From a virus: DNA of 64,000 nucleotides. Below the pieces are notes generated by a model. That model worked only from the letters and a program-made list of their open reading frames with translations, was not told where the DNA came from and did not search any database. The position numbers and the translations under genes were made by a program. The stretch lies in IMG/VR virus record IMGVR_UViG_3300017963_000220, positions 1 to 64,000 of that record; one strand, given 5' to 3'. Below, piece after piece: positions 8,985 through 58,781 of the stretch. The stretch's first letter is position 1. Each line of letters opens with the position of its first letter.

Positions 8985-9118
8985 CCGACTCCCCCTCCCC
9001 CGTACCCCCTCCCCCACCCTAGACTACCCCCCTAAAGGGGGGTAGCTCTAGGGTGTGTGGGTGGAGGAGCAAAGATATACCCGAAAGTTTTTTATAAAAA
9101 ATTTTTCTAAGAGATAAC

Positions 9119-12172: not shown

Positions 12173-12862
12173 ATGCCGAAGAAGAAGAACGCGAAGTCGG
12201 AAGCTGCACAGGTCGCTGAGGAATCGGCGGCTCTCTATGAGGCCCTGATGGGACAGTACGAGGGGCTTTATGAGACTGGCGGGAAGGTCGCAGACCATCG
12301 AGTGGTCTTGACTACCCAGAGCGCCACGTCTCGCGCTTTCCAACTCCTGATTTCTGACTTGACCGCCGAAGAGGTAGTCGCCTGTCTCTCCGCCATCGGA
12401 GTCAACCTCGCAGAGGAGGACGAAGAGGAGGAAGAGGAAGAGGCTGAGGCCGAAGAGGAGGAAGAGGAGGACGAAGAGGAGGAAGAGGAAGAAGAAGAGG
12501 AAGAAGAAGAGGCAGAGGACGACGACGAGGAAGAGGACGAGGAAGAAGAAGAGGACGAGGAGGACGACGACGAGGAGGAAGAAGAAGAGGAAGAAGAGGA
12601 CGAGGAGGAAGAGGACGACGAGGAAGAAGAGGAAGAGGACGACGAGGCAGAGATCGAACTCAAGGCTGGGACCTTGAAGAAGATCAAGAAAGCCAAGTCC
12701 GCTGACGCAGTGGCCAAGATGGTTTTGGCCGATATCGACATCGATGATGAAGATCTGTTGACGGCTGTCCTCGTCGAGCTTCGTGACGGAAAGGTGGCCC
12801 CCGCGCTCAAGGGTAAGAAAGAGGGCGGGCTCAAGAAGGTCGCCAAGAAGGCACTGAAGTAA
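12173..12862 (+). CDS. polyacidic protein (~110 consecutive Glu/Asp/Ala)
   Basis: AAGGAGGG upstream. N-terminus MPKKKNAKSE. The E/D run spans ~12415-12650. Followed by a strong terminator. Confidence 0.65.
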   Translation: MPKKKNAKSEAAQVAEESAALYEALMGQYEGLYETGGKVADHRVVLTTQSATSRAFQLLISDLTAEEVVACLSAIGVNLAEEDEEEEEEEAEAEEEEEEDEEEEEEEEEEEEEAEDDDEEEDEEEEEDEEDDDEEEEEEEEEDEEEEDDEEEEEEDDEAEIELKAGTLKKIKKAKSADAVAKMVLADIDIDDEDLLTAVLVELRDGKVAPALKGKKEGGLKKVAKKALK

Positions 12863-12928: not shown

Positions 12929-15490
12929 TTGCCTGGAGGGTCACAAGATGGGGATATTAGAAACGTGCGTATAAGGTTCAAATCGAAATGTCGTAAGTGT
13001 CCGCTCCACATAGGCGCGGTAACAAAGTGCATTGGTGGTGAGGGTGTAAGTGACCTACGTGGTGAGGGCCTCTTACTCGTTGGCGAGGCTCCAGGTGAGG
13101 TTGAGGACTACAAGGGGAGACCCTTTGTAGGACCGACAGGAGCAGAGCTTCGTAAGATGGTGAACAGGGTGGTAGATGATCGTATTCCGATCAGATACAC
13201 CAACGCTGTACGCTGTTATCCGGGCAACAATGATGTGAGCCTCGGCGTAGGTCCATGTCGTGAATACCTGTTAGAGGAGATCGCCCAGGTCAATCCGGGG
13301 CGTATCATAGCCTTGGGTAGGCACGCTGTTCAGTCATTGACAGGCTATCGTCTCCCTATCAGTGAGGTTGTAGAGGGTTGGACAAAGAGCACACAGTTTG
13401 GTGTGAAAGTACCGACTCAGTTCGCCTATCATCCGGCGGCTCCACTACACAACAAGTCACTACGGAAGTTCTGGCTTGAGACAACAAAGCGCATGATCCA
13501 GAAGCCACCGCCAGATACCTGGCGGGCGCTCGAGGACGTCAAGATCATCAAGGTTCAGACGGTCAAGAAGGCTCTGGCAGTCTTGGCCGAGGCTATGGAA
13601 CAGGATTATGTAGCTTACGATACAGAGTACAACGACAAGACGAATCGACTCTTGTGTGCATCGTTCTGTTGGGACGTAAACAAGGCTTATGTCTTCAACG
13701 ATATTGTGATGGGCCATTCGTCGATAATAGCAGCCATAGAGCGGCTATTTCAGACGGTCAAGATGGTGGCTCACAACTGGAAGTTTGACGCTTGGGTATC
13801 TGTCAAGGCTCTGGGCATAGATCCAGAGGTCATTCTCCACCCTGGTAGGTGGTGGATTGACACCTCGACGCTGAGAAAGCTCTACCATCCAGAACAGGAC
13901 AGTAACTTGGAGATAGCTGAGTGGCAGGTCGGTATGGGTGGTGGTAAAGAGGAGCTGTTCGAGCTACTCGGGCGAAGTCATAAGGGGCCTTCCTATGAGA
14001 AGGCTTACAATGACTATCCAGACGTAGTGATGCGCTATTGTGGGAACGACGGGATAGGCTGTTATAGGCTTCTGGTTCGGTACTCACAGGGGCTCAAGAG
14101 AGAGGGACTGGCACCATTGTGGAATGATATCTTTGGGCCTCTTGGAGGTCTCCTGTTTCACATGGAATACGTCGGTCTTCAGGTGGACACAGAGGCAATG
14201 GACGCCTTGGACGCTAGGTTACGCGGTTCACTCGAGCGGGAGTTGATCGCTATAAGATCATCCAAAGTAGTCAAGCGTGTAGCAAAGAATTGGGACTTTG
14301 ACGCGACGGCTGACGATTTCAATCCGAAGTCAGCCCACCACATGAGAGAGCTACTCTTCATGAATGAGGAGGGGCTCCGACTAGCACCACGAGGAACAAC
14401 ACCAGGCGGTTTACCGTCAGCGAACAAACACGTAGTAGCAGCCTATAAGAACGACAATCCTGTGATGGGTCACATCTCGGAGTTCAACAGGCTCAAACAC
14501 AAGCACAGTACATATGTCGAGGGCTGGCGTAAGCGCCTCAGCCAGGAGGACAGGATTCACTGTTCCATTCGACAGGACGCCGCGAGGACACAGCGCGTAC
14601 AGGCAAGAGATCCTAACCTCATGACGATCCCTAACAGGGGTTGGGAGGAGGATTTGGCCATACGACGTATGTGTATAGCACATGATCCTGACGATGAGTT
14701 ACTACTCGAGGTGGACTTCTCTCAAGCTGAACTGAGAGAGGCCGCAGACCTGTCCAACGACCCAGCGATGATGGAAGTCTTTCTGAACAGGCTAGACATC
14801 CATAGGAAGACCGCCTCGGAGATTATGGGCGTATCCATGGATGAGGTTGACAAGCTTCAGCGTACCAAGGCGAAGCCTATCAACTTCGGCACGATATTCC
14901 TTCAGTCTTGGAAGGGTCTACAGGAGAACGCCGAGAAGGAATATGGAGTTCATCTCACTGATGATGAGGCAAAGATGTGGCGTAAGGGTTTCTTCAAAAC
15001 CTATCGCGGCTATCAGGTCTGGACCTTCGGTGAGCTGGCTCGAGCGCGTAAGCGTGGATGTGCGTACATCTACCGTAACGGAAAACCATTCGCCCGACGC
15101 TGGCTGTTCAACCTAGGAGAACAGTGGGATAAGGGCAAGCGTGGTCACGCGGAGCGCCAGGTGGTCAACACTCCCATTCAGGGTGGGGCCTCGCTCAAGC
15201 TACTCCACGCTGGCGTGATTCTGAGACGGATGCTTTACAAAGGTGACCTCCCTGGTGTCACTCGAATCGTCTTACCTGTTCACGACTCACTCATCTTTAC
15301 GGTCAGGCGCAAGATGGTCAAGAAAGCCTTCAGGAAGATTGGTAAGGTGATGATCAGTGAACCCACCATCCGGGTACCTATTGAGGTGGAGGGCAAAGCT
15401 GGTCCGAATCTGGCTGACATGAAGCTTGTAGGTGTGATGTCCGCGCTCGACAAGAACAAGCCTAAGAAGGTGAGGATAGCAGTTGTATGA
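12929..15490 (+). CDS. DNA polymerase I family: family-4 UDG-like domain, 3'-5' exonuclease, PolA
   Basis: UDG4 motif GEAPGEVEDYKGRPFVGPTG. Exo motifs YDTEY, NWKFD, YCGNDG. Pol motif A DFSQAELR, B KPINFG, C PVHDS. Start uncertain (TTG12929 or GTG12968). Confidence 0.9.
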   Translation: MPGGSQDGDIRNVRIRFKSKCRKCPLHIGAVTKCIGGEGVSDLRGEGLLLVGEAPGEVEDYKGRPFVGPTGAELRKMVNRVVDDRIPIRYTNAVRCYPGNNDVSLGVGPCREYLLEEIAQVNPGRIIALGRHAVQSLTGYRLPISEVVEGWTKSTQFGVKVPTQFAYHPAAPLHNKSLRKFWLETTKRMIQKPPPDTWRALEDVKIIKVQTVKKALAVLAEAMEQDYVAYDTEYNDKTNRLLCASFCWDVNKAYVFNDIVMGHSSIIAAIERLFQTVKMVAHNWKFDAWVSVKALGIDPEVILHPGRWWIDTSTLRKLYHPEQDSNLEIAEWQVGMGGGKEELFELLGRSHKGPSYEKAYNDYPDVVMRYCGNDGIGCYRLLVRYSQGLKREGLAPLWNDIFGPLGGLLFHMEYVGLQVDTEAMDALDARLRGSLERELIAIRSSKVVKRVAKNWDFDATADDFNPKSAHHMRELLFMNEEGLRLAPRGTTPGGLPSANKHVVAAYKNDNPVMGHISEFNRLKHKHSTYVEGWRKRLSQEDRIHCSIRQDAARTQRVQARDPNLMTIPNRGWEEDLAIRRMCIAHDPDDELLLEVDFSQAELREAADLSNDPAMMEVFLNRLDIHRKTASEIMGVSMDEVDKLQRTKAKPINFGTIFLQSWKGLQENAEKEYGVHLTDDEAKMWRKGFFKTYRGYQVWTFGELARARKRGCAYIYRNGKPFARRWLFNLGEQWDKGKRGHAERQVVNTPIQGGASLKLLHAGVILRRMLYKGDLPGVTRIVLPVHDSLIFTVRRKMVKKAFRKIGKVMISEPTIRVPIEVEGKAGPNLADMKLVGVMSALDKNKPKKVRIAVV

Positions 15491-17569: not shown

Positions 17570-17857
17570 TTGAACCGGAAGTTTTTGGTCTGGAAATATC
17601 TCGTGAGCTGTGGCTTCAGTCACAGGAAAGCAAGAGATATTTGGAACAAGGAAATCTACCCCAAGATAACCAATGACTGGAACGCGCAAGATATCATCCG
17701 AGCCATCAAAGATGGCTGGGACCAACAGGAACTTGAAGACATGAAAGGGTCGCAAGATGAAACTCAAAGGACTGAAGAAAGCGAAAAAGGGTGGGAAGAG
17801 CAAGAAGAAGACCGCCAAGATCGAGTCGATTCCGCCCGAGAACATCCTCATCTGTGA
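17570..17857 (+). CDS. hypothetical protein
   Basis: TTG17570 lies 9 nt after TAGGAGG (17554-60). The acidic tail overlaps the next gene by 101 nt. Confidence 0.4.
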   Translation: MNRKFLVWKYLVSCGFSHRKARDIWNKEIYPKITNDWNAQDIIRAIKDGWDQQELEDMKGSQDETQRTEESEKGWEEQEEDRQDRVDSAREHPHL

Positions 17858-19070
17858 GGCTACCGGCAACAAGGTACGCTTCAACAAAGAGGACGCTCTC
17901 AAGGCGTGTATCGCTGGTGAGCGTCGAGTGTTTTCCTCACGTGAGGTGGCGGCGGGTCACAAGGAGATCGAGGACGCAAAGGGTGTTCGTCACGTTCACC
18001 GAAATTGTATCTTCGCTGATCCGAACAAGAACGTTCGACGCTTCTCCATCAAGGCGGCTGAGTTCCTGGACCTGATGGAATCCATCAAGGAAGAGGGCAT
18101 TCTTCAGCCTCTTCTCGTCCATCGGAACGCGGATCACCTTCCGGCCTTGTACGAGCTTCGAGCTGGCTTCCGTCGGTTCGAGGTGGCCAAGAAGATCGAC
18201 CTGGAGCACATTCCTATCGTGATTCTGGACGATGAGGTCAACCCCAAGGTCGCTGGTATCCTCGAGAATCTCCGTGAGGATATGAAGCCCATCGAGATGG
18301 CTACGGCAATCAAGGCTATCATGGATGAGGGTATCATCGACAAGAAGACCGGGAAGAAGATGAAGTTGTCTCAGCGCAAGGTCGCTAAGATGATCGGTGT
18401 CTCCCAGTCTCGTGTCTCTGATCTCCTCGGCTTGGTGGGTGACCTTCATACGAAGGTATCCCGCGCCGTCACCGATGGTGAGCTTCCCGTGAGCAAGGCC
18501 GCGCTGTTGAAACAGCTTCCGCCGAAGGCCCAGGTCAAGGGCCTCAAACTCGCCTCGGATCTCGACGTGAAGGATCTCCGCAAGTACGTTCAGGACACTC
18601 GTGAGTCGCTCGGACTTCCGCCGCCCGCTCATCAGGCGAAGCCCGCGAAGACCCAGATGAAGGGCAGGAAGTTCAAGGTTCGTCCGGTGGGTGAGCTGTT
18701 CGACGCCTGTCTCGCCGCTGAGAAAGCCTACTTCAAGGGTAAGGGCAAGAAGTCGGTCACAAAGAAGACCGTCGTCGCTGTCCTTCAGTGGCTCGGTGGG
18801 ATGATCGAGAAGCCGACCGACGATCCCGTGGACCCCGTGGAGTTTCAGCGGAAGGTTGAGGAGGAGGCCGAGCGGAAGAAGCAGGAGCGTCTCGAGAACC
18901 TGAAGAAGGGCCGCGAGGCTCGGAAGGCCAAGATCGCGAAGAAGAAGAAGGGTGGCGGAAAGAAAGCCGCCAAGGGCAAGAAGAAGCCACCCGCCAAAGG
19001 GAAGGCGAAAACCAACAAGGCCAAGCTCCCCAAGGTGAAGACCAAGAAGAAGGCCAAGGGTAAGAAATAG
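17757..19070 (+). CDS. ParB-like protein (ParB N-domain plus HTH) with Lys-rich termini
   Basis: EGILQPLLV and LRAGFRRFEVAK (ParB/Srx box). HTH LSQRKVAKMIGVSQSRVSDL. N-terminus MKLKGLKKAKK. Confidence 0.7.
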   Translation: MKLKGLKKAKKGGKSKKKTAKIESIPPENILICEATGNKVRFNKEDALKACIAGERRVFSSREVAAGHKEIEDAKGVRHVHRNCIFADPNKNVRRFSIKAAEFLDLMESIKEEGILQPLLVHRNADHLPALYELRAGFRRFEVAKKIDLEHIPIVILDDEVNPKVAGILENLREDMKPIEMATAIKAIMDEGIIDKKTGKKMKLSQRKVAKMIGVSQSRVSDLLGLVGDLHTKVSRAVTDGELPVSKAALLKQLPPKAQVKGLKLASDLDVKDLRKYVQDTRESLGLPPPAHQAKPAKTQMKGRKFKVRPVGELFDACLAAEKAYFKGKGKKSVTKKTVVAVLQWLGGMIEKPTDDPVDPVEFQRKVEEEAERKKQERLENLKKGREARKAKIAKKKKGGGKKAAKGKKKPPAKGKAKTNKAKLPKVKTKKKAKGKK

Positions 19071-24626: not shown

Positions 24627-24963
24627 GGAGCGGCGGAAGACAGAACGTAACCGTCGCAAGAGAGAAAGGAAGAGACAACAAAGAGACACCAAACGTCTGA
24701 GAAAGCTCTCTGAAGAGGAGAAACGGAAGATCCGAATCAGATCAAAACTGGCTGTTGAAGAGAGCTTGGACCGTCTCTTCCGGACGTTGACCAAAAGCCT
24801 ACCAGTGGCGCACATACGGAGTGACATCCCTGAGAGTACCCGTGTTTTGATTCATCCTCGGCTACAGAAGTATGCCCGAGGCTATTGGAGAAAGAAGGTA
24901 CTCCAACTCATCGCTGAGAGTAAGCGAAAAGCTCCGTCCATACTTCGGCGGGGTGCAGCATGA
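24607..24963 (+). CDS. Arg/Lys-rich hypothetical protein
   Basis: ORF 24544.. trimmed to ATG24607. Contains ERRKTERNRRKRERKRQQRDTKRLRK. Confidence 0.45.
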   Translation: MTSQSDEERRKTERNRRKRERKRQQRDTKRLRKLSEEEKRKIRIRSKLAVEESLDRLFRTLTKSLPVAHIRSDIPESTRVLIHPRLQKYARGYWRKKVLQLIAESKRKAPSILRRGAA

Positions 24964-25316
24964 CTGAGATGAAACTTAGTCTGGCGGGATTCGTGGTTAT
25001 GATTCTTGCCCTGGACCTTGTTCTGAAGTGGCGGAATCGCCATGGGGCTTTAGAAGATGTAACAGACTGGAAAGGGCTTATACCTCTGCCAGCGCTAGCT
25101 GTGTTGGGAGGTCTCTCCTCACTCGTTTGTGGATGGGTGGGGTGGGGGCTTCTCATCACAGCTGGTTTGGCTTCTGCCGATACTATCAAGGTGGTGGCGT
25201 CTCCTGGAGTGGGCTGGGAACGAGCGATCGTTATCAGATCAACCATGATATTCCAGGCAGCTACTATCGCGATGGGTATCCGAGCCGCTGTTCAGCTTAG
25301 TATGAGCTTAGTCTGA
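24960..25316 (+). CDS. small membrane protein (3-4 predicted TM segments)
   Basis: Hydrophobic stretches LAGFVVMILALDLVL and LAVLGGLSSLVCGWVGWGLLITAGLA. ATGA overlap. Confidence 0.55.
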   Translation: MTEMKLSLAGFVVMILALDLVLKWRNRHGALEDVTDWKGLIPLPALAVLGGLSSLVCGWVGWGLLITAGLASADTIKVVASPGVGWERAIVIRSTMIFQAATIAMGIRAAVQLSMSLV

Positions 25317-25330
25317 TAAAGGAGGGCCGC

Positions 25331-25693
25331 TTGTCGTTTTATGGGAAGGTAGTACACAAAGGACATTTCGACGCAGCACATTGTCTGGAGGGCTTTGGTA
25401 AGTGTTCCAACCTTCATGGGCACACCTATACAGTTGAGATAGAGATAAGCGGTCCTGTAATGGAGAACGGTGTCATAGCCGACTTCCGTGACGTCAAGGA
25501 TTGCTACATGTGTCTCGATCACAAAAATCTCAATGAAGTTTTGGGCGTTTTACCTACAGCCGAGAACACCGCGATCTTTATACTCGAAACTCTGCACGCA
25601 AAGTTTGACCTCAAGCCTGGGACAAAACATGACCGCGAGTATAGGGTCCGTCTCTGGGAGGGCAAGAACAACTATGTGGAGTTTGAGCTGTGA
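25331..25693 (+). CDS. queD: 6-carboxy-5,6,7,8-tetrahydropterin synthase
   Basis: PTPS motif CSNLHGHTYTVEI. TTG start after TAAAGGAGGG. Confidence 0.85.
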   Translation: MSFYGKVVHKGHFDAAHCLEGFGKCSNLHGHTYTVEIEISGPVMENGVIADFRDVKDCYMCLDHKNLNEVLGVLPTAENTAIFILETLHAKFDLKPGTKHDREYRVRLWEGKNNYVEFEL

Positions 25694-26685
25694 CGCGAGT
25701 GTTCCTGGCTGATGAAGCCTCTCCAGTGGTGACAAGGTACAAGAACATAGGAGACATAGACTTCTCTGTGAGACTTCTCTTGACATGCACAGGTTCGGCG
25801 CGGTCTCGAGCGCGTATTATGGCTCGAGCCTGTGACGCTCTACAGCCTCAGAGTCTCTTTGTGGATTCTGGCGCTTTTGTGTTACGCAGCGCTTTCTACA
25901 AACATGGTAAGCTCCCGTCTGTTTCAGAGGCCGAGGAGATCATCAGGAATCATCTGGGCTCTTGTGTTTGGCTGGTAGAGCATAAATATCCTCTCGAAGC
26001 CGTAGCCGAGTTGGACTTGCCTGATATCTATGGCGAGGACATCAATGAGCGCTGGCGAGAGAAATATTTCTACCCATTCCAGGAGCAGACTGGTGTACCT
26101 GTTGTTCTAGCGGTACACGGGAGTGTCAAATGGGAGGCTGTCATAGAGAATCCCCGGCTCAAGTATCTGGGGATGTCGGCGGCGATGAACAAGAAAACTA
26201 TTGCTGCTAGCTATGGCTCCTATGAGGGTTACGTCAAGTTCATGAGAAACATCGCTGAAATTTGCTACCTGGCTGGCGTGAAGTTTCACGGCTACGCTGT
26301 GACGCGCTCGAGTCTCTTGAGGAGGGTACCATACTACTCCTGTGATAGTGTTACCTGGCAACAGGCTTTACACTTCGGCGGAGCTATGGCGTTCGACGAG
26401 TCATCAGGGAACCTGGTACGTGTGGACGCTGGGAAGTCTCTCGTCAAGAACAAGGGAGCAAAGAAGCTAGCTATGAATATCGTCAAGATTCAGAGTCATG
26501 GGTCACGGCTCAGACCTCTGGATGTCATTGGACGAGAGAAGATAAAAGGTCGCCCTCGGGCTGACCATCATGCAATATTCCATGATCAAGCCCGAGTCTT
26601 TTCCCAGATGGAGACCTACTTCACCAAGTTCTGGAAGCTCAAGGGCTTTGACTGGGAACAGCAACTCGAGGACCACGGACGATGA
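25690..26685 (+). CDS. dpdA: DpdA-like DNA-guanine transglycosylase (TGT superfamily)
   Basis: LFVDSGAF resembles the TGT DSGGF catalytic-Asp motif. Located between queD and queE. Size ~330 aa. Confidence 0.6.
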   Translation: MTRVFLADEASPVVTRYKNIGDIDFSVRLLLTCTGSARSRARIMARACDALQPQSLFVDSGAFVLRSAFYKHGKLPSVSEAEEIIRNHLGSCVWLVEHKYPLEAVAELDLPDIYGEDINERWREKYFYPFQEQTGVPVVLAVHGSVKWEAVIENPRLKYLGMSAAMNKKTIAASYGSYEGYVKFMRNIAEICYLAGVKFHGYAVTRSSLLRRVPYYSCDSVTWQQALHFGGAMAFDESSGNLVRVDAGKSLVKNKGAKKLAMNIVKIQSHGSRLRPLDVIGREKIKGRPRADHHAIFHDQARVFSQMETYFTKFWKLKGFDWEQQLEDHGR

Positions 26686-27503
26686 AGGTACAGAAGAAGA
26701 AAAAGACGAAAAAGAAAAAGCTGAAATTGAAGCTGCCCGAGCGGGTCAGACTAAAAGCTGGCCAGTTTGTGGAGCTACCAGGTGGTCTCATCATAGGCGA
26801 GGTTCCGCTCGAGAAGATTGAGCATCGAAAGGTTCGCTTTCGACGTATGGATTCATTACAGCTTGGCGCTCTCAAGGAATCCATTGAGCGTCTGGGTGTG
26901 AAGGACCCTGCCTTGGTGGTTCCCAACAAGAAGGGTGGCTTTGACCTTGTGGATGGTCACCATCGCGAGGACGAGATCTCTGCTCAAGGTGGAGAGTCTA
27001 TTCCTGTGGTGGTACTCACCGACAAGGAAGGTGAGCTAGTGACAGCCAAAGAGGCTGACCTGGCTATGCACCGCTTCAACATTTCAGCTCATACAGATGG
27101 AGAGAACTTTCTTCAGGTACTCCATGAGATGCACGGATCAGGTATCTCCATCGAAGACATCGCGAAGGCCACAGCCAAAGACGTCGCCTCCATTTCTGAG
27201 ATGGTCGAAGCTTTTACAGCAGACCTCGAAGAAGACGATGACGATGAGGACGACACCAGAGGCGGGGCCGGTTCAGGTGGGAGTCGTTATGACTCGGCTA
27301 CTGCTTTCGGCGCGGCTGAGAATGACGAACCAACACATGAATCCTCACGTGGGATTCCCTTGATTTTGCAGCTACCAGGGACAGATGATGTCCGAGAGCT
27401 GTTGAGTAGGGCTGTAGAACTGTTCAAATCTTCCTCTACCTCTGAGGCGGTAGTGGAAGCCTTGCGTGTAGTCGTTGGAAGAAACGACGAAGGAGAAGAG
27501 TAA
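26682..27503 (+). CDS. ParB N-terminal-domain protein (DpdB-like position)
   Basis: GVKDPALVV...FDLVDGHHR (ParB/Srx domain). ATGA-coupled to the dpdA-like gene. N-terminus MKVQKKKKTKKKKLKLKL. Confidence 0.6.
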   Translation: MKVQKKKKTKKKKLKLKLPERVRLKAGQFVELPGGLIIGEVPLEKIEHRKVRFRRMDSLQLGALKESIERLGVKDPALVVPNKKGGFDLVDGHHREDEISAQGGESIPVVVLTDKEGELVTAKEADLAMHRFNISAHTDGENFLQVLHEMHGSGISIEDIAKATAKDVASISEMVEAFTADLEEDDDDEDDTRGGAGSGGSRYDSATAFGAAENDEPTHESSRGIPLILQLPGTDDVRELLSRAVELFKSSSTSEAVVEALRVVVGRNDEGEE

Positions 27504-27887
27504 ATGTCAGACGATCTCATGAGAACCGTTCTCACACAACTTCTGGGCGAGACCGAGCATCCCTATCCGGACATGAGGCCCCTCGCGAGAGGACTCACCA
27601 ACGCCGCTCAGATTCAATTCGGTAACGAGGTGAGCACAGGCGCGGACATCAATGTGGATACCGATGGTGATCCACGAGCGGTCATCGTCTTCAACGAGAC
27701 TGATCCTACGCTCGCTGTCAAGCTCTACGGCATGGCTGGCGAGTACGCGATGAAGCTCACCGACGCTCCCGCGCTGACTTTCAGCGATGACGTGATCGAG
27801 CTGAAGTCCGGTGGCTTCGAGATCGGCACAGATGCAGACATGAATCCGGCGGGCGGTGAAGTCCTTCGGTGGGCCGCGATCATCTGA
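27504..27887 (+). CDS. hypothetical protein inside the deazaguanine cluster
   Basis: Starts 1 nt after the upstream stop. No motif recognised. Confidence 0.5.
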   Translation: MSDDLMRTVLTQLLGETEHPYPDMRPLARGLTNAAQIQFGNEVSTGADINVDTDGDPRAVIVFNETDPTLAVKLYGMAGEYAMKLTDAPALTFSDDVIELKSGGFEIGTDADMNPAGGEVLRWAAII

Positions 27888-27901
27888 TCGGAATCCGATC
27901 A
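27885..27901. repeat. GATC-N7-GATC inverted repeat (compensated variant)
   Basis: TGATCGGAATCCGATCA. The inner arms change from CTGA/TCAG to CGGA/TCCG but remain complementary. Confidence 0.9.
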
Positions 27902-27958
27902 ACCAACGCCATGGCTGTGGGGCTCTTCTAGCCCCCAGCCTGGGCCGCACTTTTTATA

Positions 27959-28657
27959 ATGAAACCATACACTTACCCGATAAGCGAGATGGTGGAGACA
28001 TGGCAGGGTGAAGGACCACACACTGGTTATCCTGTAATACTCGTCCGTTTCGCTGGGTGTAACCTGAATTGTACCTGGTGTGACCAGCCTGACGCGAAAG
28101 CGTTTGGTGATTCTCCACGGTATACTCTGAGGCAGTTTGATATCAAACTGAGGGGACATTCTTACGCCAATATCCTACTGACTGGTGGCGAGCCTACGCA
28201 ACATCTGGATCGTGACATTGTAGAGGTATTGACAAACTATCAGGCCGATTTCAGCAAGCCAGGGCTGTTCACACCGAAGATTATCCTCGAGACGAATGGT
28301 ACTGTACCTGATCGAGAAGACCCTACACCGGAGAGGGGAATACCTAATCTGGCAGTGGTTGTCTCTCCCAAGTATGGTAGCCGAGATGATATACGTCTAC
28401 GGTGGTATGGTAACATGGTGTGGTTGAAGTATGTTGTACCAGGTGACTGGCCTGACCCGGATGCTATCGTAGATTCCGTAGAGAGTCTGTGTGTAGCTCC
28501 GAACATGGTATACTTTCAGCCTCAGAGTAGGCTTACTTCGCATGGAGAGTCCATGGCTATGTCTGTCACTGAGACATGGGCAGATGTTTACCGAGCCCGT
28601 ACAGGTTTTAGACCTAGACTCTCTCTACAAACTCACAAGTTCGTGAATATACCTTAG
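27959..28657 (+). CDS. queE: 7-carboxy-7-deazaguanine synthase (radical SAM)
   Basis: YPISEMVETWQGEG...VRFAGCNLNCTWCD matches the QueE N-terminus and CX3CX2C-type cluster. Confidence 0.85.
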   Translation: MKPYTYPISEMVETWQGEGPHTGYPVILVRFAGCNLNCTWCDQPDAKAFGDSPRYTLRQFDIKLRGHSYANILLTGGEPTQHLDRDIVEVLTNYQADFSKPGLFTPKIILETNGTVPDREDPTPERGIPNLAVVVSPKYGSRDDIRLRWYGNMVWLKYVVPGDWPDPDAIVDSVESLCVAPNMVYFQPQSRLTSHGESMAMSVTETWADVYRARTGFRPRLSLQTHKFVNIP

Positions 28658-28665
28658 GAGGCGAG

Positions 28666-29571
28666 ATGGCAAAAGCCGAGATTATTATCTCACAAGACCC
28701 ACATGGATCGTCTCCCGCTGGCGTAGCCAAACGAGAGCTTGATCTGTATTCGGTCGGAAGTAAACCCATCATTTTCACGAACTCATCTGATGGCAACATC
28801 GGCGTGAGTAAGTGGGAGTGGACGCTTGTGGAGCGCCCACCAGGGTCGTCGGCTAGCTTGGCTGACGCCGACACAGATACGGCAGAGCTTGAAGCTGATG
28901 TGTACGGTAGATATGTTGTGTCTCTTCGCGTGAATGACTTGGGTGATGACACCATGGGGTTCTCTGTAACCGTTGCTGGTGTCTCGTATCCCTCGTTGGG
29001 TTCTCTGGTGAGCGGTGATGAACTGGGTGACTGGGACTTACCTGCCTTTCATGAGGAGACCTACGCGAATTGGACGGACTTCTATGGTCCACTCAATCCC
29101 TTTGGCGCACAGCGAGAGCTGTTCCGGATTCTGAAACAGATGAGAGAGAACCTGAGCGGTGGGGTGGCTGATGGTGTCATTCGCTTCCCATTGTCGGGGG
29201 CTCTCACACAACGTACTGACCTGAGTACCTGGACAGACGCAGCTTACATCAAAGCTTTTGATATGAGTGACATCGCTCACGTCAACGCTTACTTTGGGGC
29301 GACGGCTGTTCGAGAGGGTGTGGCAGGCACAGTAAACATACGGCTCTACGACGTGACGAACGCGGTAGCTATCACAGGTAGCACGCTCACAGGTTATGGG
29401 GCCTCCCCAGAAGACAAAGAAACATCTGCTCTGACTGTTGGCGGCTCGGCGGGTAACCTCCGTAATGACGCTGACACAAACTACAAGGTTCAGATTCAGA
29501 TCACAGGCGGTACACCATCGACAGACTTCGTTAGTATGTACGATGCCTGGCTAAGATTGGTGTTGGTGTAA
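28666..29571 (+). CDS. hypothetical protein with PKD/Ig-like N-terminal segment
   Basis: AGGAGG upstream. WEWTLVERPPGSSASL...GRYVVSLRVND resembles a PKD-type repeat. Confidence 0.55.
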   Translation: MAKAEIIISQDPHGSSPAGVAKRELDLYSVGSKPIIFTNSSDGNIGVSKWEWTLVERPPGSSASLADADTDTAELEADVYGRYVVSLRVNDLGDDTMGFSVTVAGVSYPSLGSLVSGDELGDWDLPAFHEETYANWTDFYGPLNPFGAQRELFRILKQMRENLSGGVADGVIRFPLSGALTQRTDLSTWTDAAYIKAFDMSDIAHVNAYFGATAVREGVAGTVNIRLYDVTNAVAITGSTLTGYGASPEDKETSALTVGGSAGNLRNDADTNYKVQIQITGGTPSTDFVSMYDAWLRLVLV

Positions 29572-29572
29572 C

Positions 29573-30373
29573 ATGGAAGACGTTCACGAGGAAGCCGATG
29601 ACCGAGGCATACCTATCAAGGTAGGTGTGGAGAATGTTCGTCATACTGTCTTGGTTCTTGGGCGTGATGGGGATCTCCGTGAATGCTTTGCGAGTGTTGA
29701 TGTCCAGGTGGAACTTGAACACGACGTTCGAGGTATTCACATGAGTAGAATCCTGCGTTGGTTGACGGATTGGAATCCTCTACCAGTGTATGGTGGGCTG
29801 ACTTTGGACGCCGCGACAAAACTAAGACAGGTAATGGGTGGAGGCGCAGTGGACATTGTGTCTCGTTTTCCTTTACCAGTTGTCAGGCGAACACCATCTG
29901 AACATCTCAGAACATCTCAATTCTATGATGCTGTAGTTCAACAGTCCTGGTCTGGGGCTCCATCGGAGCTGACCTATCGTTCATCTCTGACGGTTCCTGT
30001 GTTTACTGTCTGCCCTTGTAGCTTGTCGATGTGTGAGGGGATAGCCGCTCATACTCAGCGCTGTTACATAACTGCTACTGTAACACAGAACTGGGAACAC
30101 CTATGGGAGCGCTACATCCCACTCGAGGACGTTTACGATTGTCTCGCGAAGTGTGGGTCTGCCCCTGTCTTCTCGACACTGAAACGTCCAGATGAGATGA
30201 GCGTGGTCCAAGGTGGCTTCGCCAATCCAAAGTTTGTTGAAGACGTGGTACGTGATGCCGTGATCGAACTCAGATCACGGCTGAAGTTTTCGCGTTTAGA
30301 GGTACGAGCCCACAGTCAGGAAAGTATTCATCCCCACAATGTTGTGGCGTGCGCTACAGAGGTTTCAGAATGA
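29573..30373 (+). CDS. folE2: GTP cyclohydrolase I type 2
   Basis: RGIHMSRI (FolE2 GTHMSRF-like) and VCPCS motifs. Confidence 0.7.
   Translation: MEDVHEEADDRGIPIKVGVENVRHTVLVLGRDGDLRECFASVDVQVELEHDVRGIHMSRILRWLTDWNPLPVYGGLTLDAATKLRQVMGGGAVDIVSRFPLPVVRRTPSEHLRTSQFYDAVVQQSWSGAPSELTYRSSLTVPVFTVCPCSLSMCEGIAAHTQRCYITATVTQNWEHLWERYIPLEDVYDCLAKCGSAPVFSTLKRPDEMSVVQGGFANPKFVEDVVRDAVIELRSRLKFSRLEVRAHSQESIHPHNVVACATEVSE
30259..30279. repeat. GATC-N7-GATC inverted repeat inside folE2
   Basis: CGTGATC-gaactca-GATCACG. It encodes AVIELRSR. Confidence 0.9.
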
Positions 30374-54394: not shown

Positions 54395-54502
54395 GTCGAC
54401 ACGTATTCAAGAAGGCAAAAGCGTCTGATCCAGAGCTGGAGTTGAACCTTGACGAGGAGAACTCAGACTGGATCAGAACGCTACGCCGAAAACGGAGGGA
54501 CC

Positions 54503-57500
54503 GTGCCAAAGAAGGACCTGTCAAAGTACGTCAAGGTCAAGGTTCCGGTAACGAAGGGACCTAAGAAAGGTACATATACTACCGTCTATAAGAAGAAGGC
54601 CGAGCTAGAGAAGGAGAAGAAGCAAAAGAAGGCTCCTAAGGAGTCGAGCTTCTTCATGGACGTGGCTAAGTATCTCAAGATGGTAGATCTTCATGACGCT
54701 ATCTATGATGTTGCGGTCCACGCTCCGGCGGATATAGATATACCTTCTCGTCTAAGTGACCACGAGGCAGTGTTACTTTTAGACGAGACTACGTATCCTT
54801 CTTATATGCGTCACATGACACATATTCTTCGTCAGCTACGTGATAAGACTTACACATCCAAGGAACAGCTTGCCCATGAAAAGCTAGCGTTTAGTTGGAA
54901 GGTTGAGGCTGATAAGCTGCACACTAGGGCTTCACATGAGACACATAAGCGCTTGAACAAGCTCTTAGACAAGCTCTGGGATGCTGCTGAAGGTACCGAG
55001 GACGAAGAACCAGCGAAACCTCTCAGTGTCAAGGCTCCAAAGGAACCCAAAAAGTTCACAAAGGCTGGCATACGTAAGTACGCCAGAGAGCTATATACGT
55101 CTCTCACAGAGTTGCAAAAGCTCGCCAAGGATAGAAACAACCACATGAAGTCCATAACCTTGGAAGGTTCACTTGCCAAGGCTGTACTTCACGCCTATTC
55201 CTATGGTGGACCCAAGGGTAGGGTTCATCTGAAGGATGGCACTGTCATACGCTCTGAACACATTGGTAACCACACGGGTCGACGTAACGCTGATCGCCCT
55301 CCAGGTACCGTAATATGTGCATATTACGATGTTACTCCTCTGGAAAGTGCCAAGAAGTACCTTTCTGGTTACGCCGTTTTTCACATGGATGACGTGGAGA
55401 GCATAGAGGTGGATAACGTCACGTCTATGGACTACATGATGAGTCCTATGGGTATCGCTGGTGATATGGCTTCCTTCGCTGGTGGTTGCTACGTTGGTCA
55501 ACATCTCTTGGCGGACTGGTACGGCTCGGCTAATGGTCCAGCCTCCAAAGTCTTCGCCCATGCCTTGGAGCTGATGGGAGCTGTCCCTAAAGCCTACAGG
55601 TGGAATCGTGGTGAAGCCAAGTATGAGCCTGTGAGCAAAGCTATCAAGGGTAAAGGCGAGGCTACCTTTGACGCTGTGAGATACGCGAAGCAACGTTATC
55701 ACGTGACACAAGAACTCCTAGAGGGTAAGAGCAAAACCTGGACGATGTACCGGGGACTGAAGGGTGAAGTAGCTCAAGGTATCTCAGACCATTTCCTCGA
55801 ACATGGTGAGAACGCCTCTGTTGCTCTGAACTGTAGGACATTGGAGTCTTGGGCTACAGATAAAGGTGTGGCAAAAAACTTCGGCCAAACCGTATTGGTT
55901 GCTCAGGTTCCTAATGAAGCTGTGTTTGTGGACCCTCGAGTCTCCGCGATTATGACAGACTTTCGTGAGTCTGAAGCGCTTGTCGTGCAGATGAATAAGG
56001 ATAAGAAGAAGGGTAACCTTCCTCGCTTTGTAGTCGACGATTTGTTAGAGGAGAAGGAGACTTCCTGGGGTGATACCTACGCAGAGTATAGCGTGAAGCT
56101 TCGAGGTGAGAAGCCTCGGGTGCCTGTGGCGGAGCCTAAGAAGGTAACGATCAAGTCTTTGGAAGCTCGTCGTAAGGAACTTCAGAAGATAATGAAGAAG
56201 CAAGACGACATCATGGATAAGCTTCACGACAAACATGGCGATGATCATGCCGACTGGCCAGAAGAGGCTCAAGAAGCTTTCGAGGAGGCTGAAGACACCT
56301 GGTACGCAGCTGATGAGGAATCGAATCATCATTTCAATAAGATCTTCAAGATGCAGGAAGCTAACAAGAAGAAGAAGGCTACCAAGGCCGCTGCTAAGAA
56401 GAAGAAAGAGGAATCTAAAGCCTCTTCAGCAAATCTCAAGAAGCTTCAGAAGAAGATGAAGAGTCTTCGAGCCGATAAAATGGCGGCGGAAAAGATCATG
56501 AACAAGATTGAAAATAAGCATGGTAATCGGCCAGATGGATCTTATATAGGTAAGGACAAGTGGCCTAAAGCTGCTGTTGAAGCTCATAACGAAGCGGAAG
56601 CTGAGTGGTATGATCTTGATGATCAGGTAGCAGATTTAGCGGAAGAGATGTCTAAAATGAAACTCCAGTTGAAAGCCAAGAAAGGCATCACACACTTCTT
56701 CAAGAAGAGTGATCGGGGTAAGATCAGAAAGCGTATCGCCTATCAGCGTAATGGGAAGACCCATTACCGTTGGCAGTGGGTAAACGCTCCGACAGGAGAA
56801 ACCGCTCCAGTCCCAGGACAGGATGAGGACTACCGTACACATCTTGCCTATGTGTTCACCGAGGGGCGAGAAGCCTACACGAAGAACGTACTCGAGAAGG
56901 TCAAAGAGTTTCATGAGGAGCTACGAGCAAAAGGGAAACCTATTCCTGAAACCAGGGCTCAGGCTCAAGCGAAACGTACCGCTAAACGCCAGGCTGCTGT
57001 GTTACCTCGAGACATGGGACGTCTTTATTCTCTGGCTCCCATGGTTCGTCACAAGATCGCTCGAGAGACTGACGCTATAGCGAGCAAGAATCAGGGGAAG
57101 TGGCTTCGACCTGTGGGTGTGGATACTATGGGCTACTCTGTCAAGAAGGTAGGGAAGCGCGTGCATGTCCGCGACCGCTCAGGTCGAAGGCAACAGTCAT
57201 TCGCTACCATGGGCGAGGCCATAGAACACATTTACCAGGAGACCGGCCCTCGGGCTGAGGAGATAGCTCACCAAGAGCGTCGACAGGGCAAAAAGTCTAA
57301 GACCAAGCCTCTCAAGATTGAGAAGGTCAAGACCAAGGAGAAGCAGGATGTTCATGTGGAGCCCAGACGACGAGAAGATACGAAAAAGCGTAAAGTGGTC
57401 AGTACACGTGTCGCGTTGCGACGAATCAAAGAGGGCTCCTGGGGACAAGTGGGCGGCCATGATGTCTACAGGAACCTTAGTGGCGGGTACGAACTGCCGG

Positions 57501-57823
57501 GTGGCGTCAAAGCTAAGAATCTCGCTTCAGCCGTCAAACACATGTCGGAATTGAAGGTCAAGAAGCCTTCTAAAGAAGAGACGGCAAAGTCTGGGACCGC
57601 TGGGGCGATCTCAGTAGGATCACGAATCAGCTTTGGCCGTTTTGGTCAGACTGTTACAGGCAAGGTAACCAAGGTCACAAGGAAGGGTAGTCAGGTCATC
57701 GTGACCATCGGTGGTACTGACTATCCAATGGCATCACATAGGCGAGTGAAGTTCCTGAAAGGGGAGCGTACAGCTCGTCTGACATTCACGCCAGATGGAC
57801 AGCTAGTCCAGATTTGGCACTAG
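54503..57823 (+). CDS. very large virion-module protein with ADP-ribosyltransferase-like segment
   Basis: ORF 54449..57823. Start uncertain (TTG54449 or GTG54503 after ACGGAGGG). R-S-ExE pattern: MYRG, ESWAT, ESEAL. Confidence 0.6.
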   Translation: MPKKDLSKYVKVKVPVTKGPKKGTYTTVYKKKAELEKEKKQKKAPKESSFFMDVAKYLKMVDLHDAIYDVAVHAPADIDIPSRLSDHEAVLLLDETTYPSYMRHMTHILRQLRDKTYTSKEQLAHEKLAFSWKVEADKLHTRASHETHKRLNKLLDKLWDAAEGTEDEEPAKPLSVKAPKEPKKFTKAGIRKYARELYTSLTELQKLAKDRNNHMKSITLEGSLAKAVLHAYSYGGPKGRVHLKDGTVIRSEHIGNHTGRRNADRPPGTVICAYYDVTPLESAKKYLSGYAVFHMDDVESIEVDNVTSMDYMMSPMGIAGDMASFAGGCYVGQHLLADWYGSANGPASKVFAHALELMGAVPKAYRWNRGEAKYEPVSKAIKGKGEATFDAVRYAKQRYHVTQELLEGKSKTWTMYRGLKGEVAQGISDHFLEHGENASVALNCRTLESWATDKGVAKNFGQTVLVAQVPNEAVFVDPRVSAIMTDFRESEALVVQMNKDKKKGNLPRFVVDDLLEEKETSWGDTYAEYSVKLRGEKPRVPVAEPKKVTIKSLEARRKELQKIMKKQDDIMDKLHDKHGDDHADWPEEAQEAFEEAEDTWYAADEESNHHFNKIFKMQEANKKKKATKAAAKKKKEESKASSANLKKLQKKMKSLRADKMAAEKIMNKIENKHGNRPDGSYIGKDKWPKAAVEAHNEAEAEWYDLDDQVADLAEEMSKMKLQLKAKKGITHFFKKSDRGKIRKRIAYQRNGKTHYRWQWVNAPTGETAPVPGQDEDYRTHLAYVFTEGREAYTKNVLEKVKEFHEELRAKGKPIPETRAQAQAKRTAKRQAAVLPRDMGRLYSLAPMVRHKIARETDAIASKNQGKWLRPVGVDTMGYSVKKVGKRVHVRDRSGRRQQSFATMGEAIEHIYQETGPRAEEIAHQERRQGKKSKTKPLKIEKVKTKEKQDVHVEPRRREDTKKRKVVSTRVALRRIKEGSWGQVGGHDVYRNLSGGYELPGGVKAKNLASAVKHMSELKVKKPSKEETAKSGTAGAISVGSRISFGRFGQTVTGKVTKVTRKGSQVIVTIGGTDYPMASHRRVKFLKGERTARLTFTPDGQLVQIWH

Positions 57824-57835
57824 GAGGGCTGAGAG

Positions 57836-58111
57836 ATGGGTGAGTACGATGAGGTTGTGAAGAAACACCTGGGTCCAGGTCCGTACAAGACGGGCGAGTT
57901 GCGTCCTGGGAAGGCTCTTGAGGGTGGCGACGTTCGTCAGACCACAGAGAAGCCTCTCACCAAGCTCGAGCTTACGCAAGGACAGCTCGAGCGGATCAAG
58001 GATCACATGGCTGACGGTAAGAGCTACGAAGAGGCTGTGTCTCGCGTAGCAGGCGTTCCTGTCGAGGAGCTGGAGAAGGGTTCCTACATCATTCAGAGGA
58101 AACATGGTTGA
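57836..58111 (+). CDS. hypothetical protein
   Basis: AGGAGGGCTGAGAG upstream. Confidence 0.5.
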   Translation: MGEYDEVVKKHLGPGPYKTGELRPGKALEGGDVRQTTEKPLTKLELTQGQLERIKDHMADGKSYEEAVSRVAGVPVEELEKGSYIIQRKHG

Positions 58112-58781
58112 CTCATGTGTGCTGCTATTGAGCGGTGGTCTTGATTCGGCTGTCTGTCTGTACCAGCTACTTGAACAGGAGGTAGATGTCTACCCTTTGT
58201 TCGTTCACTATGGACAGGCAGCCGAACAAGAGGAGTACCAAGCAGTACTACGTCTTATTTCTCAGGCTAGGGAACGCTTTGACACTGAGGTGATCAATCT
58301 CCAACACGTATCCATGCAAATGATGGGTTCGTACCTGACTTTTGATCAACCAGTCTGGTATGACCTGGACGACCCTAAAATGCTGGATGGTGAGTACGTG
58401 AAGGTGTCCCCTACATATGTACCTGCTCGTAACACAATTTTGGCGCTGTTGGGGTTCCAGGTAGCCTACAAATACGACCTGGATGCTGTAGCGCTCGGTG
58501 TGAAGGTCGTCAACGAGGCCCTTTATCCTGATTGTGGTACTGAGTGGGCCGTCGCCATGCAACATATGTTCAATCTACACACATTGGGAGGTAGAAAAGA
58601 GGTTCGTCTCTTGACCCCCATCGCAACGGCTCGGCGTTTTGAAGTCCGGAAAATGGCCAAAGAGTACGGTGTACCAGAGGATCTCCTTATGAGTTGTCTT
58701 CTCCCTATAGATGGGGAACCTTGTGGTAGGTGCTCGGGCTGTCTGGAAGAAGAAGATGAAAACACCGAGAAAAAAGAGTGA
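58104..58781 (+). CDS. queC: 7-cyano-7-deazaguanine synthase
   Basis: PP-loop LLLSGGLDSAV. C-terminal Zn cluster CLLP...CGRCSGC. Confidence 0.85.
   Translation: MVDSCVLLLSGGLDSAVCLYQLLEQEVDVYPLFVHYGQAAEQEEYQAVLRLISQARERFDTEVINLQHVSMQMMGSYLTFDQPVWYDLDDPKMLDGEYVKVSPTYVPARNTILALLGFQVAYKYDLDAVALGVKVVNEALYPDCGTEWAVAMQHMFNLHTLGGRKEVRLLTPIATARRFEVRKMAKEYGVPEDLLMSCLLPIDGEPCGRCSGCLEEEDENTEKKE

Follow-up and report, generated by a model that had tools for sequence, protein, structure and literature searches.

A major way in which phages evade restriction and some CRISPR systems is the 7-deazaguanine modification of their DNA; the enzymology known so far rests on a few cultured phages. DNA of the mycobacteriophage Rosebush contains 2'-deoxy-preQ0 (dPreQ0) at ~28% of G, the DpdA enzymes of Enterobacteria phage 9g and Escherichia phage CAjan insert preQ0, and phages with the minimal FolE/QueD/QueE/QueC/DpdA set carry dPreQ0 (PMC6884629). 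Bacterial DpdA requires the ParB-fold ATPase DpdB for preQ0 insertion (PMC10164549). Here, we analysed a 64,000-nucleotide stretch of phage DNA (positions 1 to 64,000 of the IMG/VR virus record IMGVR_UViG_3300017963_000220, referred to as the window), in which preQ0 synthesis genes at 25,331 to 30,373 surround a divergent DpdA and, directly behind it, a short ParB-fold protein that we term ParBs. We put the probability at about 60% that the locus is a phage 7-deazaguanine DNA-modification system in which DpdA and ParBs cooperate, and in which three further open reading frames (ORFs) in and beside the cluster are backbone genes of the phage. The genes concerned are the following:

24960-25316, + strand: 118-residue membrane protein, putative backbone gene (hydropathy; homologue in the related phage L041, E 1e-11)
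25331-25693, + strand: QueD, 6-carboxytetrahydropterin synthase (Pfam PTPS 1.8e-25; TIGR03367 7.5e-21)
25690-26685, + strand: divergent phage DpdA, predicted DNA-guanine transglycosylase, DpdA1-related (phrog_887 3e-9; hhalign to phage DpdAs)
26682-27503, + strand: ParBs, short ParB/Srx-fold protein, candidate DpdA partner (ParB-like PHROGs 1.4e-9)
27504-27887, + strand: 127-residue protein, putative backbone gene (homologue in L041, E 6e-35)
27959-28657, + strand: QueE, 7-carboxy-7-deazaguanine synthase, a radical SAM protein with CNLNCTWC (phrog_2076 1.8e-29; Radical_SAM 1.6e-9)
28666-29571, + strand: 301-residue protein with two predicted beta-sandwich domains, putative backbone gene in a variable slot (AlphaFold2 (AF2) model, pLDDT 87)
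29573-30373, + strand: FolE2, GTP cyclohydrolase IB (PF02649 7.6e-55, full length; NF010200 2e-46)
58104-58781, + strand: QueC, preQ0 synthase, unfused (PF06508 4.2e-34; TIGR00364 1e-30)

All cluster ORFs are present on the + strand at these coordinates. The motifs that a first-pass annotation of the window had read from the translations (HGHTY, DSGAF, DGHHR, CNLNCTWC, GIHMSR and CPCS) are all there, and Pfam, PHROG and NCBIfam confirm the families behind its order of queD, a DpdA-like gene, a ParB gene, queE and folE2, with queC at 58104. Many independent metagenomic contigs have this gene order too, and the arrangement is therefore not due to chance. A search of the cluster DNA against 50,697 phage records returned no DNA-level match and no cultured phage; a protein identical to the product of the DpdA-like ORF is also found on a 95.8-kb JGI contig.

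Like the window, Rosebush-type (cluster B) mycobacteriophages combine a full preQ0 pathway with a homologous DpdA (hhalign E 2.6e-6) and a ParB-domain gene overlapping dpdA by 4 nucleotides, and have no tailoring enzyme. Their genes, however, run from gp1 (a ParB-like nuclease-domain protein) through gp2 (DpdA) to QueC, QueD, QueE and FolE, which places the ParB gene upstream and not downstream of DpdA; their FolE is of type I and their cluster compact, whereas the window has FolE2 and a cluster that is interleaved and split. The Rosebush-type ParB protein has no detectable sequence relation to ParBs beyond the fold (E 0.044). Arthrobacter phage Mufasa8 shares the order of the window, with overlapping genes for DpdA (gp90) and a ParB-like nuclease-domain protein (gp91) and adjacent que genes. 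The Mufasa8 DpdA is one of the closest structural neighbours of the window DpdA and homologous in sequence (hhalign E 1.9e-7), its ParB protein matches ParBs in the N-domain only (DGEHR motif; E 2.4e-7, 59 columns), and its FolE is of type I. The annotated ParB-like nuclease-domain genes beside DpdA in both systems run counter to the first-pass view that described phage systems are generally annotated with DpdA alone. In the paper on CRB2, the gene beside a mycobacteriophage DpdA was even speculated to be a dpdB homologue (PMC6392294). The idea of a partner is not new in outline, having already been hinted at in annotations and in one paper; we found no paper testing a ParB gene as partner of a phage DpdA.

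The DpdA1 systems (9g, CAjan and Pseudomonas phage Iggy) and Bacillus phage BCD7 have a catalytic core homologous to that of the window DpdA. The 9g-type and BCD7 genes adjoin preQ0 genes, as in the window, but unlike in the window they have no adjacent ParB gene; 9g in addition encodes a Gat-QueC leading to G+, whereas the window QueC is unfused, and BCD7 DpdA carries an additional C-terminal half of ~450 residues. In the Salmonella Montevideo Dpd system, a DNA transglycosylase of the tRNA-guanine transglycosylase (TGT) superfamily is encoded beside a ParB-fold protein with D-G-x-x-R, as is predicted for the window. Its DpdB, however, has DGQQR and an SspE/DndB-like C-terminal domain, whereas ParBs has DGHHR and no such domain, DpdC-K genes are missing from the window, and no match between the window DpdA and bacterial DpdA could be detected at the sequence level. 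Finally, ParBc (PF02195) domains fused or adjacent to phage methyltransferases and CmoX also place a small ParB N-domain beside a post-replicative base-modifying enzyme (PMC12783734); in the window, the enzyme would be a base-exchange transglycosylase, and ParBs stands as a polypeptide of its own, complete with a conserved C-terminal module.

We regard the identification of 25690-26685 as a DpdA as secure at the family level, because profile homology, structural neighbours among phage DpdAs, conserved residues and que-gene context agree, and place it in a divergent branch of DpdA1 sensu lato. The protein matches only phage "queuine tRNA-ribosyltransferase" PHROG profiles and no Pfam family, and tblastn matches DpdA genes. 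In hhalign, the clade profile aligned to a 9g-type DpdA1 profile with 98% probability (E 2.9e-13) at an identity of only ~25%, pairing DSGAF with DSGAF, HGYAVT with HGFGIT and YYSCDSVTWQ with WYSCDSSSWIQ, and to BCD7 DpdA with E 4.4e-11 over 229 columns, which upholds the first-pass call of a DpdA-family gene. Membership of the other phage and viral types was ruled out: for DpdA2, hhalign against nt-1 YP_008125322 gave E 0.88 and H200 is retained; for DpdA3, hhalign against Cellulophaga phiST CGPG_00065 gave E 0.32; and for DpdA4 (DUF6610, PF20314, archaeal viruses) there was no Pfam match at E <= 0.1. Foldseek against the phiST DpdA3 (M4SLA5) was weak (E 3e-3, template modelling (TM) score 0.31-0.37).

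Invariant throughout the clade are D59-S-G-A-F63, D109, H143, H200-G-Y202 and D219, the last within a conserved S217-x-D219-S. When 58 distant relatives are compared, D59, S60, G61, D109 and H200 still never vary, and conservation of D219 is at least 90%. These residues align with D72, H141, H196 and D215 of 9g, and the window DpdA keeps the His equivalent to 9g H196, which has been reported lost in DpdA2 (PMC6884629). The catalytic residues expected of a DpdA are an acid/base Asp in the DSG motif with a stacking aromatic four positions on, an Asp and a His for base recognition, and an Asp nucleophile. For bacterial DpdA, a catalytic set Asp/Asp/His/Asp has been described (PMC10164549); from motif order and a sub-significant alignment of DpdA1 with 7ui4, we infer that the window residues match bacterial D95, F99, D130, H181, L236 and D256. 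The AF2 model (pLDDT 82, pTM 0.81) has the strand/helix alternation of a barrel, with the conserved Asp and His at strand C-termini, and its best Foldseek neighbours in BFVD are phage models with the DpdA annotation (queuine tRNA-ribosyltransferase; E 1e-14 to 1e-5, TM 0.5-0.65).

Close clusters of the protein number only 9 among 5.8 billion proteins, and a whole-library profile search recovered 945 relatives. All distant relatives recovered from IMG/VR and JGI have QueD, QueE or QueC next to them; one of these relatives fuses DpdA to QueF. Unusual architectures among the relatives (L018 6174-7742; L054 479-2415; L056 722-2859; L062 3289-5255; L009-L013; L026 4800-7073) comprise this fusion, tandem pairs of DpdA paralogues that might form heterodimers, and proteins of 710-757 residues with an extra C-terminal half; inteins occur in 3 of 58 DpdA relatives. 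In the public records, GenBank MT135025.1 (Vibrio phage V07, 349 kb, UNVERIFIED_ORG) is at 278736-279686 100% identical to the DpdA1 gene of the siphovirus VspDsh_1, and is probably chimeric.

ParBs begins with a Lys-rich tail, followed by the ParB N-domain, a helical middle region and an acidic linker; a conserved beta-alpha-alpha module makes up the C-terminus. Besides the ParB-like PHROGs it matches phrog_498, a ParB-methyltransferase family, and its match to Pfam ParB_N (1.9e-4) lies below threshold. A profile made from an alignment of eight orthologues matched in the PDB the CTPase N-domain of Noc/ParB/Spo0J (E 3e-7) and, more weakly, SbnI, SerK and sulfiredoxin, with no DndB or SspE among the matches; DGHHR is invariant in ParBs and aligns with the GERRxRA box of Noc. 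The DpdB and DndB models of NCBIfam and PADLOC were not matched at E <= 1, and the DpdB motif, DGQ(Q/H)R, has D-G-x-x-R in common with DGHHR while the family signature differs. ParBs as a DpdB orthologue was ruled out, given the missing model match and the missing DpdB-type C-terminal domain, as was a canonical ParB/Noc partition protein, since DGHHR replaces GERRxRA and HTH_ParB is not matched. A ribbon-helix-helix fold of the C-terminus is unsupported, the only matches being compositional ones to designed helical repeats. Cultured phages gave no tblastn match to ParBs.

In 12 of 12 non-identical contig lineages of this DpdA clade with downstream DNA (the window, L001, L002, L003, L005, L034, L035, L037, L039, L044, L045 and L048), ParBs is the next ORF and overlaps or abuts DpdA, while the identity of the DpdAs ranges from 86% down to ~26%. 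Matches of the downstream ORFs to the profile of short ParBs range from E 1e-9, for a 50-residue fragment at a contig end, to E 1e-137, and those to the canonical ParB of the phage are far weaker. In L039, at the ~26% end, the que genes are rearranged and the DpdA-ParBs pair is intact. Conversely, ParBs and DpdA are both missing at the syntenic locus of the related phage L041 (JGI 3300041084 Ga0452213_000125, 67509-88408; 20.9 kb examined of a 105-kb contig), in which the canonical ParB is kept. Other ParB-domain genes stand next to DpdA upstream in L016/L058, L014/L052 and the Rosebush-type phages, and downstream in L054 and Mufasa8. Because of the strict linkage, the joint absence in L041, the ParB genes flanking other DpdAs and the requirement of the bacterial enzyme for DpdB, a functional partnership of ParBs with DpdA is our best, if unproven, reading of the sequence data, at roughly even odds. 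The first-pass proposal of a phage DpdB analogue stands in the sense of a credible DpdA partner, not of a DpdB orthologue, and has much firmer comparative support than the window sequence by itself could offer.

A bolder version, which we advance tentatively and at somewhat less than even odds, is that this large, mostly uncultured DpdA clade is an obligate two-component transglycosylase that needs its own co-evolving short ParB-fold protein. The DGHHR site of ParBs would bind or hydrolyse a nucleotide, and the C-terminal module would load or target DpdA on duplex DNA. As part of the same tentative proposal, the pair may be a phage solution analogous to bacterial DpdA-DpdB and independently derived. 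If true, this could explain the inactivity of some phage DpdAs on their own, such as phiSM DpdA1, DpdA3 and DpdA4 (PMC10516641).

All four preQ0 enzyme families, FolE2, QueD, QueE and QueC, are present in the window, and by their family matches we consider the assignments unambiguous; with the DpdA homologue, they bear out the first-pass description of a 7-deazaguanine DNA-modification cluster. A strong AAAGGAGG ribosome-binding site precedes the QueD start, and the QueE ORF also matches QueE NCBIfam models. FolE2 in the place of FolE is rare in phages, cultured phages using FolE: of 50,697 phage records, tblastn found a FolE2 homologue in no more than 3, at least one of which is a 2-kb fragment, and L039, a more distant relative in the same DpdA clade, has a type-I FolE instead. 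The locus shows that FolE2 is able to replace FolE within a phage pathway. QueC, with an SGGLDS loop and a C-terminal Cys cluster, lies ~28 kb (27.7 kb) downstream of FolE2 among structural genes; immediately 5' of it, a 1124-residue protein (54449-57823) carries a DRAT-type ADP-ribosyltransferase domain.

The Pfam scans covered the ORFs in and around the cluster, the large ORFs for replication and structure, and 37 further + strand ORFs of at least 100 residues. No QueF, ArcS, Gat/amidotransferase, DUF328, DUF6610 or DpdN/DpdM-type formyl- or methyltransferase was found among window ORFs of at least 100 residues, and Pfam, PHROG and NCBIfam scans of the window returned no signature of QueF, ArcS, Gat-QueC, DpdC, DpdL, DpdM or DpdN. 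Beyond the pathway, these scans returned only ThyX, MT-A70, a MazG-like protein, SLT and helix-turn-helix (HTH) proteins. Since the gene set is the minimal one, QueC is unfused and no tailoring enzyme is recognised in the window, the virion nucleoside is predicted, by the published rule on gene content (PMC6884629), to be dPreQ0, and the first-pass baseline stands.

FolE2, QueD, QueE and the distant QueC would thus convert GTP to preQ0, and DpdA would exchange guanine for preQ0 in already-replicated phage DNA by a TGT-type double displacement, with D59 (DSGAF) as putative general acid/base and D219 (SCDS) as putative nucleophile. The resulting dPreQ0 DNA would resist host restriction. ParBs, translationally coupled to DpdA, probably acts with it on DNA, perhaps as a nucleotide-dependent DNA-binding or loading factor or as a targeting factor, and would be a functional analogue, not an orthologue, of bacterial DpdB. 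The three conserved backbone genes are interleaved with the modification genes and are judged to have no specific role in the pathway.

The first-pass annotation had put forward these three ORFs as candidates for a new tailoring or targeting function, a proposal that the comparison with L041 removes. L041 is clearly related to the window phage, having in common the canonical ParB, RecA, Mre11, SbcC, genes for 135- and 215-residue proteins and an HTH protein. Its genes run in the order 135-residue protein, 215-residue protein, membrane protein, 127-residue homologue, two tandem copies of the 301-residue protein (E 1e-94 and 1e-88) and HTH protein, with no QueD, DpdA, ParBs, QueE or FolE2 among them in the 20.9 kb at the syntenic locus. 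This allows the window to be read as an L041-type backbone in which three sites carry pathway genes: [QueD-DpdA-ParBs], [QueE] and [FolE2]. No close DpdA cluster lists a longest contig of the length of the L041 contig; the metagenome scan for DpdA relatives covered contigs other than those of L041 and the window. Because the same order occurs in L041 without que, dpdA or ParBs genes in between, we judge the genes of the 127-residue, 301-residue and membrane proteins to be backbone genes independent of the pathway and not tailoring enzymes. L039, in turn, has the DpdA-ParBs pair and no detectable homologues of the three ORFs. L041 also carries an N6_N4 methyltransferase, an MT-A70 protein, a thymidylate synthase, a dCMP deaminase and a faint match to nucleoside deoxyribosyltransferase; this phage may use a different DNA-modification strategy.

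The membrane protein has hydrophobic stretches at residues ~4-24 and ~39-73 and no family match in Pfam, PHROG, NCBIfam or PADLOC; the 127-residue protein has only 5 homologue clusters and no PDB or PHROG match. For the 301-residue protein, the PKD call is sub-threshold in Pfam (E 0.0018), but its homologues carry PF22352 and the AF2 model agrees, showing an Ig/PKD sandwich at the N-terminus, then a helix, then a jelly roll at the C-terminus. Foldseek relates the model to carbohydrate-binding modules (CBM36, CBM16 and CBM4), lectin domains of Cry toxins and a phage spike knob. The N-terminal half is conserved among homologues and the C-terminal half variable, and tblastn against cultured phages gave no match. 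The slot between QueE and FolE2 holds one gene in the window; its counterparts hold two paralogues in L041 (10001-11796) and eight genes in L002 (13068-20043), among them a 576-residue version with a C-terminal part that is beta-helix-like by eye, followed by a 542-residue protein with fibre-like repeats and a GT4 glycosyltransferase. We take the slot for a diversity hotspot and the 301-residue protein for one with a binding or structural role, not for an enzyme that tailors nucleobases.

Several observations weigh against the proposed system or parts of it. Neither direct sequence searches nor profile searches with the DpdA clade returned a PDB match, TGT and bacterial DpdA included, and Foldseek against the PDB returned only generic TIM barrels (TM 0.3-0.4), with no TGT or DpdA. 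There is no direct sequence or fold link to a solved TGT or bacterial DpdA, and the link runs via phage DpdAs; of the placement of 25690-26685 in the TGT/DpdA fold, the homology to phage DpdAs held and the direct structural match did not. These negatives are uninformative because bona fide 9g-type DpdA1 fails alike, having no Pfam TGT match and reaching bacterial DpdA 7ui4 only at E 0.4. Against a partnership stand the lack in ParBs of a DpdB/DndB model match and of their C-terminal domain, the lack of an adjacent ParB gene in 9g, Iggy, a Synechococcus phage and BCD7 and in about half of the sampled DpdA lineages, and the finding that the validated phage DpdAs of 9g, CAjan, nt-1 and VH7D work without a ParB partner (PMC6884629, PMC10516641); ParB domains are common beside many unrelated phage DNA enzymes, which makes adjacency not specific to this chemistry (PMC12783734). 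ParBs might accordingly be unrelated to DpdA chemistry and share no more than the operon with DpdA, being a nuclease, a partition-like factor or an early-gene DNA-binding regulator. Its generic N-domain, nearest to Noc/ParB/Spo0J and the only part that the actinophage partner proteins have in common with it, fits this alternative too, which we hold to be unlikely while giving it real weight: the overlapping linkage remains strict in 12 lineages, down to ~26% identity and despite rearranged que genes, ParBs is lost together with DpdA in L041, and the phage is already equipped with a canonical ParB that includes an HTH domain.

The cooperation of DpdA and ParBs aside, the product of the system may differ from dPreQ0. 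The tailoring search covered 64 kb of a ~96-kb contig, many window ORFs have no family match, and DpdA can be promiscuous, the DpdA2 of VH7D inserting preQ1, preQ0 and CDG (PMC10516641). DNA carrying dPreQ1, dADG, dG+ or dCDG, tailored by an unrecognised enzyme, by one encoded in the unsampled third of the genome or by the host, for example by its QueF, nevertheless appears unlikely, given that tailoring signatures are missing from the window scans, that QueC is unfused and that minimal-set phages carry dPreQ0 (PMC6884629). For the 127-residue, 301-residue or membrane protein to be a new tailoring or targeting component is highly improbable: the three ORFs are interleaved with pathway genes, and the 127-residue protein, which has no detectable fold match, abuts ParBs inside a hairpin-bounded unit, but all three keep their order in L041 with no pathway genes between them, the DpdA-ParBs pair of L039 does without detectable homologues of any, and the 301-residue protein looks like a binding protein of PKD and CBM-like type whose C-termini vary and which also occurs in tandem duplicates and as a beta-helix variant. 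There is only the slightest chance that the cluster serves tRNA (preQ0/queuosine), with the TGT-like enzyme acting on tRNA. DpdA does belong to the TGT superfamily, and sequence alone leaves its substrate unfixed; yet the homologues that can be detected are phage DpdAs for which modification of DNA has been shown (PMC6884629), its candidate partner is a DNA-type ParB-fold protein, and QueA, QueG, QueH and QueF were not found in the scanned window ORFs.

The window is phage DNA with all long ORFs on the + strand. By Pfam, its replication side comprises a helicase, a DnaB-like helicase, a fusion of uracil-DNA glycosylase (UDG) and PolA, the canonical ParB, RecA and an SbcC-like protein, and its structural side a terminase, a portal and the large DRAT-domain protein. 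Relatives have a Metallophos (Mre11/SbcD-like) gene call between RecA and SbcC, a position at which the window ORF has no Pfam match. The SbcC/Rad50-like gene of one relative (L003 2319-4412) contains a Hint (intein) domain. Three further features of the window are the following:

12929-15490, + strand: N-terminal UDG domain fused to a family-A DNA polymerase (Pfam)
17757-19070, + strand: second, canonical ParB (ParB_N and HTH_ParB, GFRRFEVA box)
27885-27945, + strand: two GC-rich stem-loops 3' of the 127-residue gene (dG -37 kcal/mol, z -5.3)

UDG-polymerase fusions have been described for N4-like and SPO1-like phage polymerases (bioRxiv 10.1101/2025.03.26.645540). The canonical ParB is kept in all relatives, the dpdA-less L041 included, and the phage therefore has two different ParB-fold proteins. 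Within the cluster, QueD and DpdA overlap by GTGA, DpdA and ParBs by ATGA, and ParBs and the 127-residue gene join at TAAATG, each junction being preceded by a Shine-Dalgarno-like sequence. The stem-loops behind this series were missed by a consensus terminator scan and revealed by folding, with 0 of 200 shuffles as stable, and the same spacer has hairpins of different sequence in L001 (~12195-12280), L002 (~12280-12365) and L003 (~9003-9075), which suggests a terminator or RNA-processing site closing a QueD-DpdA-ParBs-127-residue unit. GC content, overall and at third codon positions (GC3), gives no indication of recent insertion of the pathway genes relative to the backbone genes.

For the family, the locus contributes a divergent DpdA lineage that standard Pfam annotation misses, and it is the cleanest comparative case so far tying a ParB-fold protein to a phage DpdA. 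At the same time, three tempting candidates for tailoring enzymes are removed from consideration. If ParBs is required, it would provide a mechanistic link between the phage and bacterial systems and a working guideline for the reconstitution of phage DpdAs that do not work when expressed alone.

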